This document shows positions 1 to 44,241 of a stretch of DNA of 44,241 nucleotides, piece after piece (positions within the stretch are counted from its first letter, which is position 1; each line of letters opens with the position of its first letter). The DNA comes from Escherichia phage vB_EcoP_KAW1A4500, in the sequence record MK373773.1, one strand, 5' to 3'. The position numbers were made by a program, and so were the translations under genes. The notes beneath the pieces were generated by a model. The model did not search any database and was not told the DNA's origin. It saw nothing but the letters and a program-made list of their open reading frames with translations.

Positions 1-267
1 TCTCGCCCTCGCCCTCGCCGGATTTCCCCCATATGGGGCCGCGCTGCGGTTGGCTTGGGAGTTGGGCTGGGCTGGTCCGTCTTCGACGGGTGGCCTAGGG
101 CTTGCCGAGGTCTGCTCTTAGTGGCTGCACAAGGAGAACGCCTAGGAAGCGCTAGGGCACGCCTTAGTATTGGACAAGGTGATTGCCTTAGTGCAACCGC
201 TTAGGGCTTACACAGGCCGTTTTAGGGCCATTCCTGAGCTTTTGACAGGGTGGGCGTGGGTGGGCTA
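1..267. repeat. Left direct terminal repeat (DTR), 267 bp, GC-rich
   Basis: Bases 1..267 are identical to 43975..44241; both copies end at the same base and the right copy runs to the window end. Typical T7-group terminal redundancy. Confidence 0.9.
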
Positions 268-665
268 TCTGTTCGTTTCGCTCCACTGCGTTACGCTACA
301 CTCACCGCGCTTGTGTACCTTAGGTTATTCCTTGATGGATAGCTTAGGTTAGCCTTAGTGGACTACCTTAGTTAAAGCCTTAGTGCTTAGCTTAGTATCA
401 GCTTAGTAGTGTACCTTAGTCAGACTTAGTGTCTTCTCTTAGTGATTGCACATGCAAGCATGTAAGATGCCATTAGGTCGCGGTCGGTAGACCGCTAAAG
501 AAAGAGAATAGTAATAAGATGCAGTAGGAGGAACACCAGAAACCTAGCCTATCCTAGCTCTGTATCTATTGCTTTCCTTAGTCTCACATGTTAGACAACC
601 TATGTTTATCTTAGTAGTTGTGACATGTATCACATAAATAATCTATCTTAGTGAAACTTAGTGTT
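163..665. repeat. Array of about 18 short CTTAGT/CTTAGG repeats at the left end
   Basis: Irregularly spaced copies of (C)CTTAG(T/G) from inside the DTR to the first early promoter; positional analogue of the T7 left-end short-repeat array (analogy is inference). Confidence 0.55.
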
Positions 666-1748: not shown

Positions 1749-1961
1749 ATGAACTACTGCGACATCGCTCACGAATTACGCATGGAACGTGAGAAACAAG
1801 AGAAGCGGATTATCAAGAAGATGGCTGTACTGCTTGCACACTATAAGGCAGACAAACAGCCAACACATGATGAGTTCGTGGACTTCTGTAACATGTATCT
1901 TAATGTGAGTAAGGCCACTGGTTACAGATGGCTTAAAGCACTGAATGATGGAGAATTGTAG
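1749..1961 (+). CDS. Small early protein with helix-turn-helix-like C-terminus (70 aa)
   Basis: ORF track; C-terminal NVSKATGYRWLKALNDGEL resembles a DNA-binding helix-turn-helix (inference from motif only). Confidence 0.55.
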   Translation: MNYCDIAHELRMEREKQEKRIIKKMAVLLAHYKADKQPTHDEFVDFCNMYLNVSKATGYRWLKALNDGEL

Positions 1962-2004
1962 CAATAAGCCAGCTTAATAGCCAGCCTATCAAGGCACAAG
2001 CCAC

Positions 2005-2017
2005 GCTCTTTAACAAT
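2005..2017 (+). promoter_or_regulatory. Conserved 13-mer box GCTCTTTAACAAT (copy 3 of 3)
   Basis: Exact repeat, about 110 bp upstream of the Ocr start. Confidence 0.4.
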
Positions 2018-2113
2018 ATGGGTAGTCGCTTCTTAGTCTGGATAGGTTAAACCTAGGAGATTCTCTTGAGTCTCCTATAATGTAACCTAACTAACTAAAT
2101 GAGGATTAATAAC

Positions 2114-2470
2114 ATGGCTATGTCTAATAAGACTTACTCTCAGGTTTACAACACCGCTCATGCTGCATTAGTTGAACGTATCTGGGATGATGCTATTGAT
2201 TGTATCGATAACGCACATGATGCAATCCATGAGGTGGCGGATAGTGCTGTACCAATCTATTATGCTGACATCTTCTCGGTGATGGCCAGTGAAGGCATCG
2301 ACCACTTCTTCGAGGATTCTGGCTTAATGCCAGACACTAAGGATGTGACGGTCGTACTACAAGCCCGTATTTATGAACAACTCACCATTGATTTATGGGA
2401 ACGTGTTCAAGATATGATTGATGCGTACATCGATTCCGCTGAGGATTCAGAAGAAGAGGAGGAAGAATAA
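2114..2470 (+). CDS. ocr: Ocr-like DNA-mimic anti-restriction protein (T7 gene 0.3 family)
   Basis: Translation MAMSNKTY...[34 protein letters not shown]...[14 protein letters not shown]... with poly-Glu tail closely matches T7 Ocr as recalled; GAGGA RBS; first sizeable early gene. Confidence 0.88.
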
Positions 2471-3902: not shown

Positions 3903-6528
3903 ATGCAAGACCTACACGCTATTCAACTTCAACTTGAAGAAGAAATGTTTAACGGCGGTATCCGTCGCTTTGAAGCGGACCAACAACGCCAGATTGCATC
4001 CGGTAATGAATCAGACACGGCATGGAATCGCCGTTTATTGTCCGAGTTAATCGCGCCAATGGCTGAAGGTATTCAGGCATACAAGGAAGAGTATGAAGGT
4101 AAAAGAGGCCGTGCACCGCGTGCATTAGCTTTCATTAACTGCGTAGAAAACGAAGTGGCAGCATATATCACGATGAAAATCGTTATGGATATGCTGAATA
4201 CAGACGTTACCTTACAAGCAATCGCTATGAATGTAGCGGACCGCATCGAAGACCAAGTACGTTTTAGCAAGCTGGAAGGTCACGCAGCTAAGTACTTTGA
4301 GAAAGTGAAGAAGTCGCTTAAGGCTAGCAAGACTAAATCTTATCGTCATGCGCACAACGTAGCGGTAGTAGCTGAGAAATCTGTTGCTGACCGTGACGCG
4401 GATTTCTCCCGTTGGGAGGCATGGCCTAAAGATACCTTGCTACAAATCGGTATGACCTTGCTAGAAATACTGGAAAATAGTGTATTCTTCAATGGTCAGC
4501 CTGTCTTTCTTCGCACCTTGCGCACTAATGGTGGCAAGCATGGCGTTTACTACTTACAGACCAGTGAACACGTAGGGGAATGGATTACAGCATTTAAAGA
4601 ACATGTAGCGCAACTTAGCCCGGCTTATGCACCTTGCGTTATACCTCCGCGTCCGTGGGTTTCTCCTTTTAATGGCGGTTTTCACACTGAGAAGGTAGCA
4701 AGTCGTGTGCGTCTTGTTAAAGGCAGCCGTGAACGTCCGCAAGCTGACCAAAAAGCAAATGCCAGCGGTTTACAAGGCTGTTAACGCTTTGCAGGCGACT
4801 AAATGGCAGGTTAACAAGGAAGTTTTACAGGTTGTTGAGGACGTAATACGGCTTGATTTAGGCTATGGCGTACCTTCCTTCAAACCACTCATCGACCGCG
4901 AGAACAAGCCAGCTAATCCGGTGCCGTTAGAGTTCCAGCACCTGCGAGGCCGTGAACTGAAAGAAATGTTAACACCGGAACAATGGCAAGCCTTCATCAA
5001 CTGGAAAGGTGAATGCACCAAGCTGTATACCGCTGAGACTAAGCGCGGCAGCAAATCGGCGGCGACCGTCCGCATGGTAGGGCAGGCCCGTAAATACAGC
5101 CAATTTGACGCAATATACTTCGTGTATGCTCTGGACAGCCGCAGCCGCGTCTACGCGCAATCTAGCACGCTCTCTCCGCAATCAAACGACTTAGGCAAGG
5201 CATTGCTCCGTTTTACCGAAGGGCAGCGTCTTGATAGCGCTGAGGCGCTTAAGTGGTTTTTGGTGAACGGGGCTAATAACTGGGGTTGGGATAAGAAAAC
5301 TTTTGACGTGCGCACCGCTAACGTGCTGGATAGTGAATTTCAAGACATGTGCCGCGACATTGCAGCGGATCCGCTGACCTTCACTCAATGGGTAAATGCC
5401 GACTCCCCTTACGGCTTCCTTGCATGGTGCTTTGAATATGCGCGTTATCTGGATGCACTGGATGAAGGCACGCAAGACCAATTCATGACGCACCTCCCAG
5501 TCCATCAAGATGGTAGTTGTTCTGGTATCCAGCACTACAGTGCTATGCTACGCGATGCAGTAGGTGCGAAAGCGGTAAACCTTAAGCCCTCTGACTCACC
5601 TCAAGATATTTATGGTGCCGTTGCGCAGGTAGTAATTCAGAAGAATTATGCATACATGAATGCAGAGGATGCGGAAACCTTCACTTCTGGCAGCGTGACT
5701 TTAACAGGTGCAGAACTTCGTAGCATGGCTAGTGCGTGGGATATGATAGGAATCACTCGCGGCCTGACCAAAAAGCCTGTAATGACACTACCTTATGGCA
5801 GCACACGTCTAACCTGCCGTGAATCAGTGATTGATTATATCGTTGATTTGGAAGAAAAAGAGGCCCAACGGGCTATTGCGGAAGGGCGTACCGCCAATCC
5901 TGTACATCCTTTTGATAATGACCGCAAAGACAGCCTGACACCTAGCGCAGCTTATAACTATATGACAGCTTTAATCTGGCCTTCTATTTCGGAAGTGGTT
6001 AAAGCTCCTATAGTGGCAATGAAAATGATTCGTCAGCTTGCACGTTTCGCAGCTAAAAGAAACGAAGGCTTAGAATATCCCTTACCAACTGGCTTCATCT
6101 TGCAACAAAAGATAATGGCTACCGATATGCTCCGCGTATCCACTTGCTTGATGGGTGAAATCAAGATGAGTCTCCAGATTGAAACAGATGTAGTTGATGA
6201 AACGGCAATGATGGGTGCGGCTGCTCCTAACTTCGTCCATGGTCACGATGCTAGCCACCTGATTCTGACTGTATGTGACCTAGTGGATAAAGGTATTACA
6301 TCCATTGCAGTCATCCATGATTCTTTCGGTACTCATGCAGGACGTACCGCAGACCTGCGGGATAGCTTAAGGGAAGAAATGGTTAAGATGTATCAAAACC
6401 ATAATGCCCTGCAAAATCTGCTAGATGTGCACGAAGAGCGTTGGTTAGTAGACACCGGAATCCAAGTACCAGAGCAAGGAGAGTTTGACCTTAACGAAAT
6501 CTTAGTTTCAGACTATTGTTTCGCATAA
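3903..6528 (+). CDS. Phage single-subunit DNA-directed RNA polymerase (SP6-type), interrupted by an apparent frameshift near 4734
   Basis: Two overlapping ORFs (3903..4784 and 4705..6528) together give an RNAP of about 874 aa; N-terminus [19 protein letters not shown] and palm motifs ([21 protein letters not shown]) match SP6-type RNAP as recalled. Confidence 0.9.
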
Positions 6529-6535
6529 TATTAAT

Positions 6536-6564
6536 AGGCCATTCCTTAGGGAGTGGCCTTTTTC
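6536..6564 (+). terminator. Intrinsic terminator after RNA polymerase gene (early terminator)
   Basis: AGGCCA/TGGCCT 6-bp stem with internal pairing followed by TTTTT, 8 bp after the RNAP stop. Confidence 0.6.
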
Positions 6565-6602
6565 TTTACCTACTACCTGTAACATTTCATTAACATAAAA
6601 GT

Positions 6603-6618
6603 GTCTCACATGTGAGAC
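6603..6618. promoter_or_regulatory. Perfect 16-bp palindrome GTCTCACATGTGAGAC (family copy 1)
   Basis: Perfect dyad; 2 bp upstream of promoter P1. Family copies at 6794, 9103, 10261, 15203, 31645. Confidence 0.7.
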
Positions 6619-6620
6619 TT

Positions 6621-6643
6621 ATTTACCGGACACTATAGGATAG
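6621..6643 (+). promoter_or_regulatory. Phage RNAP promoter P1 (ATTTACCGGACACTATAGGATAG), variant
   Basis: Matches the genome-wide SP6-type consensus at the GGACACTATAG core; positional analogue of T7 phi1.1A. Confidence 0.65.
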
Positions 6644-6659
6644 CCGTCGGAGACGGGAA

Positions 6660-6790
6660 AGAAAGGGAAGATAAAGGATATAAAGGAAGTAATAGGTATT
6701 AAAGGTTATATAGGTTATCTAGGAACACCTAGGAATACCTATTACCTTCTTCCTTCCTCTTATTACCACTTAGAGGAAGGGCAGACCTAG
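6660..6790. other. AT/purine-rich TAGG-repeat element with dyad symmetry; candidate primary replication origin
   Basis: Repeats of TAAAGG/TATAGG/CCTAGG between two tandem phage promoters, downstream of the RNAP gene and upstream of gp1.1-like and primase genes, as at the T7 primary origin (analogy is inference). Confidence 0.4.
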
Positions 6791-6793
6791 GTT

Positions 6794-6809
6794 GTCTCAC
6801 ATGTGAGAC
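6794..6809. promoter_or_regulatory. Perfect 16-bp palindrome GTCTCACATGTGAGAC (family copy 2)
   Basis: Identical to copy 1; 5 bp upstream of promoter-like P2. Confidence 0.7.
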
Positions 6810-6814
6810 TTCGT

Positions 6815-6837
6815 ATTTACCGGACAGTATAGATAAG
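6815..6837 (+). promoter_or_regulatory. Phage RNAP promoter-like P2 (ATTTACCGGACAGTATAGATAAG), degenerate
   Basis: 19/23 match to consensus, with a C-to-G change in the core; positional analogue of T7 phi1.1B. Confidence 0.45.
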
Positions 6838-6863
6838 ACTAACTCACTTTGGAGATTTTAACC

Positions 6864-6992
6864 ATGCGTAACTTTGAGAAGATGTCCCGTAAAGCTAACC
6901 GTTTTGACATGGAAGAAGGGCAGACGAAAGGCAAGAAGCTGAATAAACCTGTCCGTGACCGTGCATCTAAACGCGCTGCGTGGGAGTTCTAA
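6864..6992 (+). CDS. Gene 1.1-like small basic protein (42 aa)
   Basis: Translation MRNFEKMSRKANRFDMEEGQTKGKKLNKPVRDRASKRAAWEF closely resembles T7 gp1.1 as recalled; GGAG RBS; below ORF-track cutoff. Confidence 0.7.
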   Translation: MRNFEKMSRKANRFDMEEGQTKGKKLNKPVRDRASKRAAWEF

Positions 6993-6995
6993 GTT

Positions 6996-8084
6996 ATGGC
7001 TATTATTCAGAACGTACCGTGTCCTGCCTGTCAAAAGAATGGACATGATATTACTGGCAACCATCTTATGATATTTGAGGATGGCGCTGGTTACTGCAAC
7101 CGTGGTCACTTCCATGATAACGGCAAGCCTTATTACCATAAGCCAGAGGGTGGCATCGAGATAACCGAATTACCTATTACTGGCAATATCAAATATACAC
7201 CTTCTCAGTTTAAAGAGATGGAGAAGGAAGGGAAGATTAGTGACCCTAAGCTACGCGCCATCGCACTTGGTGGTATGCGTATGAAAGACCGTTGGGAGGT
7301 CATGAATGAGCAAGAAAGGGCAGAACAAGAAGCAGAGTGGAAACTTGATGTTGAATGGTTCCTCACGCTCAAGCGTAAGAACCTTGTATCCCGTCACATT
7401 CGAGGTGACATCGCAGCAATGTACGATGTGCGCGTTGGACACGATGAAGAGGGAAGAGTCAACCGTCACTATTATCCACGATATGAAAAGGGTGTGCTTG
7501 TTGGAGCAAAATGCCGGACGTTGCCGAAGGATTTTAAGTTCGGACACCTAGGTAAACTCTTTGGTATGCAAGACCTTTTCGGTATGAACACTTTGTCTCA
7601 CGTGTTAGACAAGGGAAGACGAAAGGATTGCTTGCTTATTGTGGGCGGCGAACTGGATGCACTAGCAGCACAGCAGATGCTCCTTGATTCTGCCAAGGGT
7701 ACTAAGTGGGAAGGCCAGCCTTACCATGTATGGTCTGTCAATAAAGGTGAGTCTTGCCTTGAAGAGATAGTGCAGAACCGTGAGCATATCGCCCAATTCA
7801 AGAAGATTATATGGGGTTTTGATGGAGATGAGGTGGGGCAGAAGCAGAATCAGCAAGCGGCTCGCCTGTTTCCTGGCAAATCCTATATCCTTGAATACCC
7901 TTCTGGTTGCAAAGATGCTAACAAGGCATTGATGGCAGGGCTAAAGAGTTTGTTGATGCTTGGTTTAATGCCAAGTCATCTGATGAAGTCTTTGGTAGCC
8001 AGATTAAATCTATCGCATCTCAAAGGGATAAGCTCAAGGCTGCACGTCCAGAGCAAGGGTTATCATGGCCTTGGCCTAAGCTGA
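6996..8084 (+). CDS. DNA primase domain of a gene-4-like primase/helicase; ORF tail is out of frame
   Basis: N-terminal Cys4 zinc ribbon (CPACQ...CNRGH) and TOPRIM-like GFDGDE segment up to CKDAN; after about 7932 the homologous reading continues in another frame. Confidence 0.85.
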   Translation: MAIIQNVPCPACQKNGHDITGNHLMIFEDGAGYCNRGHFHDNGKPYYHKPEGGIEITELPITGNIKYTPSQFKEMEKEGKISDPKLRAIALGGMRMKDRWEVMNEQERAEQEAEWKLDVEWFLTLKRKNLVSRHIRGDIAAMYDVRVGHDEEGRVNRHYYPRYEKGVLVGAKCRTLPKDFKFGHLGKLFGMQDLFGMNTLSHVLDKGRRKDCLLIVGGELDALAAQQMLLDSAKGTKWEGQPYHVWSVNKGESCLEEIVQNREHIAQFKKIIWGFDGDEVGQKQNQQAARLFPGKSYILEYPSGCKDANKALMAGLKSLLMLGLMPSHLMKSLVARLNLSHLKGISSRLHVQSKGYHGLGLS

Positions 8085-8927
8085 ACAAGGTAACGCTAGG
8101 TATTCGTAAGAACCAGCTTATCATTGTAGGTGCAGGCTCTGGTGTAGGTAAGACTGAGTTCCTCCGCGAAGTGGTTAAACACCTCATTGAAGAGCACGGT
8201 GAATCTGTAGGCATCATTTCTACAGAAGACCCGATGGTCAAGGTGTCCCGTGCTTTTATCGGTAAGTGGATTGATAAGCGCATTGAGTTACCGCCAACCA
8301 ATGACCCGAAAGAAGACGGATACCGTGAGGTGTTCGACTACACCGAGGAAGAAGCTAACGCTGCCATTGATTATGTGGCTGATACAGGAAAGCTATTTGT
8401 GGCTGACTAGAAGGCGACTATTCTATGGAGAAGGTAGAGCAAACTTGCCTAGTTTGAGGCTATGGGCATTTCTAATATCATCATTGATAACTTAACGGGG
8501 ATTAAATTAGATGAGCGTGCTTTTGGGGAAGGTTGGTGCACTTGATGAATGCGTCAAACGAATTGGTACTATCAAAGACCGACATGCGGTTACGATTTTC
8601 CTTGTCTCTCACCTTACACGTCCTCCGGCAAACCGTACCCAACACGAAGAAGGTGGCGAAGTTATCCTTTCTGACTTCCGAGGCTCAGGCGCTATCGGAT
8701 TCTGGGCATCTTACGCCTTGGGATTGAGCGTAAGAGAACGCTTGATGAAAGGACTACCACGTACATCTCGTGTGTCAAAGACCGCGATCAAGGTATCTAC
8801 ACTGGAAAAGGTCATGCTTAAAGGTGACATTCAGACCGGACGTTTGATGGAACCACAAGCCCGTACTAAGTCATTTGATACAGTGAAGCAAGGCAGCAAG
8901 AGGTGCCTGATTTACCGGACACTATAG
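7922..8927 (+). pseudogene. Helicase domain of gene-4-like primase/helicase, split into at least three frame segments
   Basis: Walker A GAGSGVGKT in frame 2 (open 7922..8407), Walker B-like NIIIDNLTG in frame 2 (8453..8542), HEEGGEV...RGSGAI in frame 0 (8511..8927); stops in all three frames between 8404 and 8510. Confidence 0.8.
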
Positions 8928-8932
8928 AAGAG
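8910..8932 (+). promoter_or_regulatory. Phage RNAP promoter P3 (ATTTACCGGACACTATAGAAGAG)
   Basis: Near-perfect consensus 23-mer overlapping the 3-prime end of the helicase ORF. Confidence 0.8.
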
Positions 8933-8960
8933 AAAACTTTGAAGATGAACAGGAGTTTTA

Positions 8961-9086
8961 ATGGAAATTATTAAAAGTATTGATATCGGTATTGAGATTG
9001 TGATCAGATTATCACGATATGGATTCAAAGCGGTGAAAAATCTGGTTTTCTTATCAAATGTTCTTTATTGTAACACGCTTATCTAG
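8961..9086 (+). CDS. Small hydrophobic protein, hypothetical (41 aa)
   Basis: ATG at 8961 after AGGAG; first ORF downstream of P3; below ORF-track cutoff. Confidence 0.35.
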   Translation: MEIIKSIDIGIEIVIRLSRYGFKAVKNLVFLSNVLYCNTLI

Positions 9087-9102
9087 TGTATTTATCAGGG
9101 CT

Positions 9103-9120
9103 TGTCTCACACGTGAGACA
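9103..9120. promoter_or_regulatory. 18-bp palindrome TGTCTCAC-AC-GTGAGACA (family copy 3)
   Basis: Perfect 8-bp arms with 2-bp centre; GC-rich flanks extend the potential stem; intergenic. Confidence 0.7.
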
Positions 9121-9384
9121 GGCTTATTAAGTACATAAAAAATTGGAGATTGATTATGTATAATTAGTGCAGGTGATTATGTTCGTAACATCAATGCAAC
9201 CTCACGTAGATATCGTTGCCGTGGTACTAATGTAAGTGAAAACAGCTACTATGTAGAGTACAGTAATGGTATTAGACAGGCTTATCAAAAGGAATCAGCA
9301 CATAACTACCTTGAGAAGATTGGAGAGGTAAGCAATCAATGTAAGTGCGTACACGATGAGATTTGCGATAAGTGTGCCCGCCAG

Positions 9385-9816
9385 ATGCATAAAATGCTAT
9401 TATACCCTCTTCGCTATGGTGCTGGCATTCAAACCTTAGCAGAGGCATATGGCAAAGGTAAGACTACACTTAATAAAGATCGCCGCAATGTAATCACTAG
9501 TAAGACTCAAAGTGAAATGATTAAGCAATGTGGCACTGCACTAGGTGTTACGCAGTTTAACACTCGTGCTCTTGGTAAATCCACAGGACAAGCTATGGTG
9601 AAGATTGGTGAAGCCATGATGCACCCAAATGTACCTGTGCGAATCATGGATGTTGACCATGCAATCACAGAACACGGTACACCACGACGTGTAGCTAATA
9701 AGCATTTTGCCGACACTATAGAAGGTATTATCCGTAAGCAAGGGTTGAAAGGTCTTCACCTCTTGAATGGTGAAGAATTACTGTATCTCCCTATTGTTAC
9801 TGAAAAACCTACGTGA
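9385..9816 (+). CDS. Cys-rich protein, hypothetical; ORF may really begin at ATG 9156 (frame break at 9157-9165)
   Basis: ORF track 9385..9816; the same frame is open back to 9154 without a start codon, while a GGAG-preceded ATG at 9156 is one base out of frame. Confidence 0.5.
   Translation: MHKMLLYPLRYGAGIQTLAEAYGKGKTTLNKDRRNVITSKTQSEMIKQCGTALGVTQFNTRALGKSTGQAMVKIGEAMMHPNVPVRIMDVDHAITEHGTPRRVANKHFADTIEGIIRKQGLKGLHLLNGEELLYLPIVTEKPT
9703..9725 (+). promoter_or_regulatory. Weak internal phage-promoter-like site (GCCGACACTATAGAAGG core)
   Basis: Core GACACTATAGAAGG is exact; upstream recognition region has about 3 mismatches; lies inside the 9385..9816 ORF. Confidence 0.25.
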
Positions 9817-9836
9817 ATATTTAAGGAGTGTTAATC

Positions 9837-16068: not shown

Positions 16069-17009
16069 TAGATGCTGATATGTTACCCTACATCGTAGGT
16101 TATACAATCAGTGACATGACTTATTTACGAGCCACAACTCGTGTTAAGTCAGGACAAGTCCCATCAATCAAAGATACACCTGAGTGTAAGCAAGCATGTG
16201 ACCGTGTGAACTCCTTGCTTAACTCTTGGGTGTATGCAGCAGAGTGTGATGCAGCTAAGCTATTCATGACGAAATCAGAAGCTAACTTCCGTGTCCGCCT
16301 AGCATTCACAAAGCCTTATAAGGGTCAACGTAAGACCGAGAAGCCTCCGTTCTTCTATGAATTGCGAGAGCATCTCTTAGAGGTTCATGGTGCAATCTTG
16401 GCAGATGGAGAAGAAGCTGATGACCTCATGAGCATCGCACAATGGGACAGCCACCGCCGCTTCCAGCAAGATACAGGTAACGAGTTCCCTATCGGTAGTC
16501 CAGAGCATAAAGCATTCTCTGATACTTGCATCGTTTCCTTGGATAAGGATTTGATGATTGTACCCGGTTGGCATCTTCAGCCGGGAGGTGAGAAGAAATG
16601 GGTAGAACCTATGGGTTGGCTTGAGTTACGCCGCAAGGCTAATGGTCAAGTCAAAGACCTAAAAGGTGCTGGCCTCATGTTCCATTATGCACAGATGGTT
16701 ATTGGTGATGATATTGATAACTATGCTGGTATACCTGGACGTGGTGCTAAATACGCCTATGATCTTCTCAAAGATTGTAAGACAGAGAAAGAGTTGTACA
16801 TGGCAGTGCTTGGTGCATATAAGGCTAAGTTCGGACATGGACAAGTTAAGATTAAGAATTACCGAGGTGGTTATCGTATCGGCAAGGCTTTTGATCTCAT
16901 GCTTGAATGCGGTCGCCTAGCTCACATGGCAAGATTCAAAGGTGACATCTGGCGAGCCGATAAGAATGAAATCTTATGGGGAGAAGGTGATGGATGGCTA
17001 ATAAACTAA
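15981..17009 (+). CDS. 5-prime to 3-prime exonuclease (T7 gene 6 / FEN family)
   Basis: ORF track 15972..17009 with ATG at 15981 after AAGGAG; IALIDADMLPY, GEEADDLM and GDDIDNYAGIPG motifs typical of flap endonuclease-like exonucleases. Confidence 0.8.
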   Translation: MRPNFDFGATVSEDNNLILWPTEGNRIALIDADMLPYIVGYTISDMTYLRATTRVKSGQVPSIKDTPECKQACDRVNSLLNSWVYAAECDAAKLFMTKSEANFRVRLAFTKPYKGQRKTEKPPFFYELREHLLEVHGAILADGEEADDLMSIAQWDSHRRFQQDTGNEFPIGSPEHKAFSDTCIVSLDKDLMIVPGWHLQPGGEKKWVEPMGWLELRRKANGQVKDLKGAGLMFHYAQMVIGDDIDNYAGIPGRGAKYAYDLLKDCKTEKELYMAVLGAYKAKFGHGQVKIKNYRGGYRIGKAFDLMLECGRLAHMARFKGDIWRADKNEILWGEGDGWLIN

Positions 17010-17404
17010 AATCTTCAGAGGTGGCAACTTATAAGAAAGAGCTTATGGAAAAGCAAGGTTGGAAGTGCCCTCTGTGCGGAGGCAGCCTCAAGGCAGTAAG
17101 TCCTATCAACCGTGTACTTGACCATGATCATGAGACAGGTTTCTGTCGTGCTGTTGTGTGTCGAGGTTGCAACGGTGCAGAAGGAAAGATTAAAGGTGTT
17201 ATATCTGGCTACGGAAAGGCAGGTAATAACCGCTACTTCCAACTACAATGGTTAGAACGCCTGTATAACTACTGGAAGCTACATAGTACACCTCAGACAG
17301 ATAAGTTATATCATAATCATAAAACGGAGGCAGAGAAACGAGAGGCTAAGAATCGTAAAGCTCGCCTTGCTTATGCAAGAAAGAAGGAGGTTAAGAGTGG
17401 CTAA
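16994..17404 (+). CDS. Endonuclease VII-type Holliday junction resolvase (136 aa)
   Basis: CPLCG...DHDHETG...CRGCNGAEG zinc-binding and catalytic motifs as in T4 endonuclease VII. Confidence 0.8.
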   Translation: MANKLKSSEVATYKKELMEKQGWKCPLCGGSLKAVSPINRVLDHDHETGFCRAVVCRGCNGAEGKIKGVISGYGKAGNNRYFQLQWLERLYNYWKLHSTPQTDKLYHNHKTEAEKREAKNRKARLAYARKKEVKSG

Positions 17405-21005: not shown

Positions 21006-22556
21006 ATGAAACAGAGCACAGATTTGGAGTATGGAGGTAAGCGGTCTAAGATACCTAAGCTATGGGAGAAGTTCTCCACTAAACGTAGCTCTTTCCTTGA
21101 TAGGGCGAAGCATTACTCCAAATTAACCTTGCCCTATCTGATGAATGACAAAGGTGATAACGAGACTTCGCAGAATGGATGGCAAGGTGTAGGTGCTCAG
21201 GCAACTAATCATCTAGCCAACAAGCTAGCGCAAGTACTATTCCCTGCACAGCGTTCCTTCTTCCGTGTAGACTTAACTGCACAAGGTGAGAAGGTTCTTA
21301 ATCAGCGTGGCCTGAAGAAGACAGAGCTAGCTACCATCTTCGCTCAAGTTGAAACACGGGCAATGAAAGAGTTAGAGCAACGTCAATTCCGGCCTGCTGT
21401 AGTGGAAGCATTCAAGCATCTTATTGTTGCTGGTAGCTGTATGCTATACAAGCCGAGCAAAGGTGCAATCAGTGCTATCCCAATGCATCACTATGTAGTT
21501 AACCGTGATACCAATGGCGACCTGTTAGACATTATCTTACTGCAAGAGAAAGCCTTACGCACCTTTGACCCAGCTACACGTGCTGTAGTAGAGGTTGGCC
21601 TGAAAGGTAAGAAGTGCAAGGAGGATGACAGCGTTAAGCTGTACACACATGCTAAGTATCTTGGTGATGGATTTTGGGAACTCAAGCAATCTGCTGATGA
21701 TATCCCTGTGGGTAAGGTGAGTAAAATCAAATCAGAAAAGCTACCTTTCATCCCATTAACTTGGAAGCGAAGCTATGGTGAGGATTGGGGTCGCCCTCTT
21801 GCAGAGGATTACTCCGGTGATTTATTCGTTATCCAATTCTTATCTGAAGCGGTTGCCCGTGGTGCTGCGCTGATGGCAGATATCAAGTACCTGATTCGTC
21901 CGGGTGCTCAAACTGATGTTGACCACTTTGTTAACTCTGGCACTGGTGAGGTTGTCACTGGTGTAGAAGAAGACATCCATATTGTACAGTTAGGTAAGTA
22001 CGCAGACCTCACACCTATTAGCGCGGTTCTAGAGGTATACACTCGCCGTATCGGTGTTGTCTTCATGATGGAGACAATGACACGCCGTGACGCCGAACGT
22101 GTTACTGCTGTAGAAATCCAGCGAGATGCGTTAGAGATTGAGCAGAACATGGGTGGTGTATACTCCCTCTTTGCTACTACTATGCAATCGCCAGTAGCGA
22201 TGTGGGGTCTGCTGGAGGCAGGGGAGTCCTTCACTAGTGACTTAGTGGACCCTGTGATTATCACAGGTATTGAAGCTTTAGGACGCATGGCTGAGTTGGA
22301 TAAACTGGCTAACTTTGCTCAGTATATGTCACTGCCATTACAATGGCCTGAGCCTGTCCTAGCTGCTGTGAAATGGCCTGACTATATGGATTGGGTGCGT
22401 GGTCAAATCTCTGCTGAACTGCCGTTCCTTAAATCGGCTGAAGAGATGGCACAAGAACAGGAAGCACAGATGCAAGCGCAGCAAGCACAGATGCTTGAAG
22501 AGGGTGTGGCTAAGGCCGTGCCTGGTGTAATTCAACAAGAACTTAAGGAGGCGTAA
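21006..22556 (+). CDS. Portal (head-to-tail connector) protein
   Basis: 516 aa; first gene of the late module directly before scaffold and capsid, as in the T7 group; overlapping start/stop. Confidence 0.82.
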   Translation: MKQSTDLEYGGKRSKIPKLWEKFSTKRSSFLDRAKHYSKLTLPYLMNDKGDNETSQNGWQGVGAQATNHLANKLAQVLFPAQRSFFRVDLTAQGEKVLNQRGLKKTELATIFAQVETRAMKELEQRQFRPAVVEAFKHLIVAGSCMLYKPSKGAISAIPMHHYVVNRDTNGDLLDIILLQEKALRTFDPATRAVVEVGLKGKKCKEDDSVKLYTHAKYLGDGFWELKQSADDIPVGKVSKIKSEKLPFIPLTWKRSYGEDWGRPLAEDYSGDLFVIQFLSEAVARGAALMADIKYLIRPGAQTDVDHFVNSGTGEVVTGVEEDIHIVQLGKYADLTPISAVLEVYTRRIGVVFMMETMTRRDAERVTAVEIQRDALEIEQNMGGVYSLFATTMQSPVAMWGLLEAGESFTSDLVDPVIITGIEALGRMAELDKLANFAQYMSLPLQWPEPVLAAVKWPDYMDWVRGQISAELPFLKSAEEMAQEQEAQMQAQQAQMLEEGVAKAVPGVIQQELKEA

Positions 22557-23476
22557 TGTCTTTCTCATTTACTGAACCGTCAACCACTCACCCTACTGCT
22601 GAAGAGGGTACGGTAGAAACCAAGGAGGTAACAACTGATGCTGCTATTACTGATGCTCCTGCTGACGCTGGCACTGCTGTACAAGATGACAATGCTGGTG
22701 CACAACCTACTGAAGACACCGGAGGAGAAGCTTCTGGACAGCCTTCAGAAAAAGGAGACAATGGCGGAGAGAATGGTGAACCTAAGCCAGATGATACCGC
22801 GACCGACACTGAGGAAGTGCAATACTTCTTCGGAGAACATGAAGTAACAGTAGACATCCCACAGGATGTAACTGACAGCCTTAAAGAGAAAGGCATTGAT
22901 GCCAAGCAGGTTGCCAAGGAACTCTATTCCAAAGGTGGCAAGTTTGAACTGTCAGATGCAACCAAGCAGAAATTGTATGATGCTTTTGGCAAGTTTGCGG
23001 TAGATGCTTACCTGTCAGGTCTTAAGGCTCAAAATGAAGCCTTCTTCCTGAAAGAAGCCAACGCAGCTAAAGAGTTGGAAGCAGCTAACACCCAACGATT
23101 CTCTGATGTTTCTAAGGAAATTGGTGGCGAAGAAGGTTGGTCCCGTCTTGAGGAGTGGGCGCTTGAAACTCTATCCGATGACGAACTCACGGCATTCAAT
23201 GCGGTGATGGAGTCTGGCAACCAGTACCTCCAGCAGTACGCTGTGCGTGAACTGGAGAGCCGCCGTAAGCAGGCACAGGGGGATGATAAGCCATCCCTGA
23301 TTGAGCCATCAGCACCTGCTAAGGCTAATGAAGAGAATGGCCCACTGACGCGAGATCAGTACGTTCAAGCAATCGCAACTCTTAGCCAGAAGTACGGCAA
23401 TGACCGTAAAGCTATGGCAGAAGCTCAGGCTAAACTGGACGCCCGTCGCCGTGCTGGCATGGCTCGCGGTATCTAA
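22556..23476 (+). CDS. Capsid assembly scaffolding protein
   Basis: 306 aa, acidic low-complexity N-terminus and helical C-terminus; between portal and capsid. Confidence 0.78.
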   Translation: MSFSFTEPSTTHPTAEEGTVETKEVTTDAAITDAPADAGTAVQDDNAGAQPTEDTGGEASGQPSEKGDNGGENGEPKPDDTATDTEEVQYFFGEHEVTVDIPQDVTDSLKEKGIDAKQVAKELYSKGGKFELSDATKQKLYDAFGKFAVDAYLSGLKAQNEAFFLKEANAAKELEAANTQRFSDVSKEIGGEEGWSRLEEWALETLSDDELTAFNAVMESGNQYLQQYAVRELESRRKQAQGDDKPSLIEPSAPAKANEENGPLTRDQYVQAIATLSQKYGNDRKAMAEAQAKLDARRRAGMARGI

Positions 23477-43974: not shown

Positions 43975-44241
43975 TCTCGCCCTCGCCCTCGCCGGATTTC
44001 CCCCATATGGGGCCGCGCTGCGGTTGGCTTGGGAGTTGGGCTGGGCTGGTCCGTCTTCGACGGGTGGCCTAGGGCTTGCCGAGGTCTGCTCTTAGTGGCT
44101 GCACAAGGAGAACGCCTAGGAAGCGCTAGGGCACGCCTTAGTATTGGACAAGGTGATTGCCTTAGTGCAACCGCTTAGGGCTTACACAGGCCGTTTTAGG
44201 GCCATTCCTGAGCTTTTGACAGGGTGGGCGTGGGTGGGCTA
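43975..44241. repeat. Right direct terminal repeat (DTR), 267 bp
   Basis: Identical to 1..267; preceded by CTTAGTG-type short repeats at about 43770..43890. Confidence 0.9.

Follow-up and report, generated by a model that had tools for sequence, protein, structure and literature searches.

Results

Two overlapping open reading frames with homology to RNA polymerase

The window analysed here is the whole 44,241-nt stretch of sequence record MK373773.1 of Escherichia phage vB_EcoP_KAW1A4500. Over its whole length it can be aligned to genomes of K1E-like Vectrevirus with 95–98% identity and, because it carries an exact direct repeat at its two ends (Table 1), represents a complete linear genome. 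Sequence related to phage RNA polymerase (RNAP) is distributed over two open reading frames (ORFs), which lie in frames 3 and 1 of the ORF listing and have 80 nt (4705..4784) in common. The original prediction had described exactly this arrangement; its coordinates were exact, and both tblastn and Pfam agree with it. The upstream ORF matches the N-terminal RNAP domain RPOL_N (PF14700, E 9.8e-30) and the downstream ORF the domain RNA_pol (PF00940, E 1.4e-89), so named in Pfam, with the catalytic palm and fingers located wholly in the downstream ORF.

Table 1. Features of the window discussed in the text
Feature	Position	Strand	Remarks
N-terminal RNA polymerase ORF, ATG start	3903..4784	+	293 aa; ORF listing, Pfam RPOL_N
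C-terminal RNA polymerase ORF, GTG start at 4705	4705..6528	+	607 aa; ORF listing, Pfam RNA_pol
Private 2-nt deletion site	4733..4734	+	alignment; placement ambiguous within 4732..4735
Private deletion cluster	7933..9229	+	~24 deletions, 1–14 nt each, ~75 nt in total, no insertions
Private 1-nt deletion	~9805	+	last 5 codons of the homologue of a 227-aa gene lost
Private 2-nt insertion	~9830	+	census against three full genomes
SP6/K1E-type promoters, consensus ATTTACTGGACACTATAGAAG	6621, 8910, 13232, 14001, 15234, 18399, 23483, 36242, 38347, 40689	+	
Additional SP6/K1E-type promoter matches	2577, 9704	+	
Exact direct terminal repeat	1..267 and 43975..44241		267 nt (266 bp in the paper)

When the 875-aa RNAP of phage vB_EcoA_fTuEco01 was searched against the window with tblastn, residues 1–277 were found at 3903..4733 in frame 3 with 100% identity and residues 278–875 at 4732..6525 in frame 1 with 99.8% identity. 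Outside the break, a single amino acid differs between the two polymerases. Homology of the N-terminal ORF extends to Glu277 (3903..4733) and is followed by an out-of-frame tail of 16 codons (4734..4781) and the stop codon TAA at 4782..4784. In the C-terminal ORF homology begins at Val279 (4735) and runs through to the end, and the frame itself opens at 4699, immediately after a TAG at 4696..4698. The RNAP of an intact relative is homologous to T7 RNAP (1aro) over residues 7–875 (E 1.2e-111), and this end-to-end homology together with the domain order RPOL_N–RNA_pol places the gene among the T7/SP6-type single-subunit RNAPs. The single uninterrupted ORF of approximately 875 codons that belongs to such an enzyme is absent from the window sequence as written, but adding back 2 nt present in the relatives yields one ORF of 875 codons. 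Judged by these alignments, the two ORFs are a single conserved gene cut by one lesion and not a chance pattern of reading frames.

The 293-aa product of the N-terminal ORF is identical to QBQ76715.1, annotated as 'putative RNA polymerase' of vB_EcoP_KAW1A4500. The other 14 members listed for the 90% cluster of this protein (382 members) are all 875 aa long, and the 293-aa product occurs among the listed members only as QBQ76715.1.

The lesion removes two nucleotides at His278

A four-way DNA alignment revealed a sole length difference in the gene: the junction sequence is GTGAACACGTCC in the relatives but GTGAACGTCC in the window. An ACAC dinucleotide repeat has lost one of its AC (or CA) units, so that ACAC has become AC and the His278 codon CAC has shrunk to a lone C at 4734. 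It had been proposed that the homologous reading switches between Glu (4731..4733) and Val (4735..4737), leaving a single extra C at 4734. The switch point is correct; C4734 itself is no extra base and instead represents the remnant of His278 after the loss of 2 nt.

Megablast with 3903..6528 matched 76 phage records. In all 30 relatives for which lengths were listed the RNAP gene comprises 2628 nt, compared to 2626 nt in the window, and these include genes that are 99.9% (fTuEco01), 99.8%, 99.7% and 99.5% identical to that of the window. When 81 nt spanning the junction were used as query, 104 phage records matched, none of them with 100% identity, and all 60 records listed, which had been sampled at even steps through the ranking of the 104, span 2 nt more than the query. 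The sample included SP6, K1-5, both K1E and Klebsiella, Salmonella, Lelliottia and Proteus phages. In the comparison with the SP6, K1-5 and K1E RNAP genes that had been suggested as a check, all of them carry the two bases. From these comparisons the 2-nt deletion is private to MK373773. In IMG/VR viral contigs, neither the junction pattern that contains the two bases nor the one lacking them had a match. The Logan contig SRR33526640 and the K1E record KY435490 share the exact DNA polymerase sequence with the window; however, the Logan contig belongs to a different relative, approximately 96% identical, in which the RNAP and primase/helicase genes are intact.

Other private indels in the record

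The translations of all 57 annotated fTuEco01 genes served as queries against the window. The genes were found full-length in one frame except for RNAP, the primase/helicase and two small genes downstream of the latter. The primase/helicase comprises 662 aa in the relatives, whereas the window has 6996..8084 and, after it, fragments in two other frames. Compared to three relatives, the segment 6990..9160 has 19 deletions with a total of 62 nt and no insertions. The private cluster as a whole (Table 1) breaks the primase/helicase gene (start at 6996) and the next two genes. In a genome-wide census against three full genomes, private frame-breaking indels were limited to 4733..9830.

The deletions are unevenly distributed. 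Counted per 200 nt from 7800 to 9400, there are 1, 0, 0, 3, 2, 5, 9 and 1 private events and then none, i.e. the density climbs toward ~9000–9230 and stops abruptly. Private substitutions are near zero across the deletion-rich zone. Nine of 22 cluster deletions, where 5 would be expected (P ~0.02), resemble the RNAP lesion in dropping one complete unit from a short tandem repeat (TGGCTGGC, AGAG). This enrichment (9/22 versus 5) is modest, and collapse of tandem repeats was therefore rejected as the whole explanation of the deletions. A helicase gene in this state is impossible in a viable phage, and the record therefore contains consensus errors. At the non-coding left end of the genome, a 9-nt deletion at ~541..549 relative to all three compared genomes may be either real variation or an error.

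Mosaicism elsewhere in the genome

Within the primase domain, the stretch 7400..7600 contains 42 substitutions that are private when compared with fTuEco01, KY435490 and UKE2. We considered these as further errors and rejected this reading, because the stretch is 99.2–99.6% identical to K1E AM084415, ACG-C91, VEc3 and T205P5. Based on these matches, it is a real recombinational mosaic allele. The endonuclease VII-like gene (16994..17401) has 69% protein identity to its fTuEco01 counterpart, compared to 97–99% for its neighbours, and similar divergence is seen in the scaffolding protein (22556..23473, 83%) and at the end of the capsid gene. By their local divergence, these segments look like mosaic replacements. 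The counterpart of the fTuEco01 gene at 2070..2237 is missing at ~1960..2110, and the early region of the window is approximately 270 nt shorter than that of fTuEco01, which is ordinary early-gene mosaicism.

Promoters and viability of the source phage

In T7- and SP6-like phages, replication, structural and lysis genes are dependent on the phage's own RNAP. The genome contains 10–12 SP6-type promoters with the core GACACTATAGAA, where zero would be expected by chance; four of them are perfect copies. Apart from one weak match, all are located 3' of the polymerase gene and ahead of replication, structural and lysis genes, which is consistent with the proposal that the polymerase is essential. 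The promoter at 8910..8930 sits within the damaged helicase region.

The source paper of MK373773 is Korf et al. (2019, Viruses 11:454; PMC6563267). The phages of that study went through single-plaque purification four or more times in succession and were propagated at an MOI of 0.1 to lysates above 1e9 PFU/ml, and electron micrographs were taken (PMC6563267). Given the repeated plaque purification, the high titre and the electron microscopy, the phage is viable. Sequencing was performed with PacBio RSII (HGAP3) or Illumina (SPAdes), the paper leaving the platform used for vB_EcoP_KAW1A4500 unspecified, and a single contig was 'linearized' at observed ends (PMC6563267). In the supplementary genome table, the entry for MK373773 gives 44,241 bp, 58 CDS, 90.5% coding and terminal repeats of 266 bp, compared to ~94–96% coding in the neighbouring rows shown, as well as a value of 774.2, which we read as mean coverage (PMC6563267). 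The words 'frameshift' and 'RNA polymerase' were both absent from the text of the paper (PMC6563267), and the RNAP split was simply carried through by automatic annotation.

Discussion

A polymerase gene that is intact in nearly identical phages appears in this record as two overlapping ORFs. We consider it very probable that the split is a consensus or assembly error in MK373773 and not biology, a judgement made from the deposited consensus. The lesion is private and missing from near-identical genomes, as would be the case for an artefact, and the same record contains other lesions with which the phage, viable as it is, could not live. Most likely, the real phage carries an intact gene of 2628 nt encoding an SP6/K1E-type RNAP of 875 aa. 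The original prediction had also held that no viable phage could arise from the sequence as written unless sequence correction or recoding restored the frame. The argument from essentiality holds. As to the remedy, correction is favoured by the private deletion, the viable phage and the ~24 other private deletions; recoding lacks conservation, signal and structure.

With respect to the technical cause, we infer that re-linearising the single contig to the physical genome ends moved a poorly supported contig end inside. In this scheme the consensus would have lost two bases, one AC unit of the ACAC in GAA-CAC-GTC, at ~4733/4734, and the same process would have produced the run of deletions at 7933..9229 with a density peaking near ~9230. 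The RNAP deletion, 4.5 kb upstream of ~9230, is probably the most distant error belonging to this taper or else arose sporadically. Two observations argue against parts of this scheme. A coverage of 774.2, if that is what the value denotes, makes random consensus errors unexpected unless local coverage or polishing failed. In addition, 3.2 kb separate the RNAP deletion from the point where the dense cluster starts, and the gene that it interrupts is otherwise essentially perfect. The RNAP deletion therefore need not share the cause of the cluster.

Three rival explanations were weighed. Programmed recoding by a +1 (or −2) ribosomal frameshift or by transcriptional slippage within 4699..4781 could restore the full-length polymerase, and a long product would result from a +1 shift at any point of 4699..4781, because no stop codon interrupts the downstream frame from 4699 onward. 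Candidate sites can be named: at CAA-AAA-G (4749..4755) tRNA-Lys paired with AAA could slip onto the +1-frame codon AAG, and AAGG stands just ahead of UGU-UAA (4773..4784). The latter resembles the +1 frameshifting of prfB (RF2) in the direction of the shift and in having a weak SD-like AAGG ahead of a stop codon. Unlike prfB, however, the window offers neither a slippery P-site codon nor a stimulatory structure, and the arrangement is not conserved. The Lys codon has no adjoining slow or stop codon, tRNA-Cys is unable to re-pair at UGU-U, the A run of 5 nt is too short for transcriptional slippage, and recoding at these sites would swap out 7–16 conserved residues. The RNA downstream folded no better than shuffled sequences (z = +0.89), an Rfam scan of 4400..5100 found no element, and the overlap showed no slippery site accompanied by an element that would cause pausing, such as a rare or stop codon, an SD upstream or structure downstream. 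All 60 records listed of the 104 are in frame at this position, and because genomes 99.5–99.9% identical read straight through without a frameshift, there is no conserved recoding site. We therefore regard recoding as hardly conceivable. A mixed population, in which defective genomes with a real deletion were complemented in trans and the consensus took up the mutant allele, is quite improbable as well. The loss of a dinucleotide-repeat unit is a typical replication-slippage mutation and high-titre lysates permit co-infection, but at least four serial single plaques and propagation at an MOI of 0.1 stand against it. A lethal allele would also need a majority to enter the consensus, and the clustered helicase-gene deletions would be left unexplained.

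The remaining alternative is a genuine 2-nt deletion in a phage that lives with a naturally bisected, non-covalently assembled RNAP. The fragments would be residues 1–277 with a 16-aa out-of-frame tail and a C-terminal piece made from the GTG at 4705 or by re-initiation at the ATG at 4759. Ikeda and Richardson reportedly described a form of T7 RNAP nicked at position 179. T7 RNAP tolerates bisection in five regions, one of which is 301–302 (Segall-Shapiro et al. 2014, PMC4299498, Supplementary Fig S3). The break in the window aligns to T7 K303/A304 and thus adjoins this seam at a distance of two residues, although the tolerance was measured in T7 and not in an SP6-type enzyme. The two ORFs would jointly hold everything but His278, and the catalytic palm and fingers are not divided between them. 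Start signals are conceivable too, since the GTG that opens the C-terminal ORF has an SD-like AGAAGG 9 nt upstream and the ATG at 4759 is in frame, 23 nt ahead of the stop of the upstream ORF. However, the putative GTG start and its SD occur unaltered in relatives whose genes are intact and hence indicate no adaptation to a split. The engineered T7 fragments had designed start signals and demonstrated activity, whereas the window has no genome-specific expression signal and contains obviously erroneous deletions elsewhere. Split T7 enzymes are, moreover, far less active unless they are aided by added interaction domains. The deletion was present in none of the other records, as seen in the 60 listed of 104 matches. 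Finally, the indels of this record are not trustworthy, because the ~24 deletions in the primase/helicase region cannot be functional in that gene. A functional split would be the first natural case of a split single-subunit phage RNAP; we consider it very improbable.

If the split is an error, as we think, its value lies in a curation flag for MK373773, and it carries little biological weight. The 293-aa fragment QBQ76715.1 has already been propagated into UniRef. Both the split RNAP and the shredded primase/helicase region (7933..9830) should be fixed or flagged before the record is used for taxonomy, pangenomes or protein families. Frameshift-split essential genes recur in deposited Vectrevirus records: in KY435490 (phage K1E, host IHE3034) the head-tail connector is divided into 61 + 397 aa, compared to 516 aa elsewhere, and the phosphoesterase into 237 + 104 aa, compared to 335 aa elsewhere.

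Indel errors in deposited phage assemblies, such as the decay of long-read contig ends, share with this record lesions that are private and consist of deletions only. They likewise break essential genes in viable, plaque-purified phages and rise in density to one point; for the record discussed here, the exact technical cause would be our reconstruction from this pattern. The polymerase itself is an ordinary K1E/SP6-type enzyme. In domain content, genome position and SP6-type promoters, the window corresponds to the RNAPs of the SP6/K1E/K1-5 type (Autographiviridae, Molineuxvirinae, Vectrevirus). It differs from them in a codon 278 that is short by 2 nt, with two overlapping ORFs as the result. 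The nearest relative is the RNAP of vB_EcoA_fTuEco01 (QVW53734.1), followed by K1E gp7, and the DNA identity of the gene to K1E NC_007637 is 96.4%.
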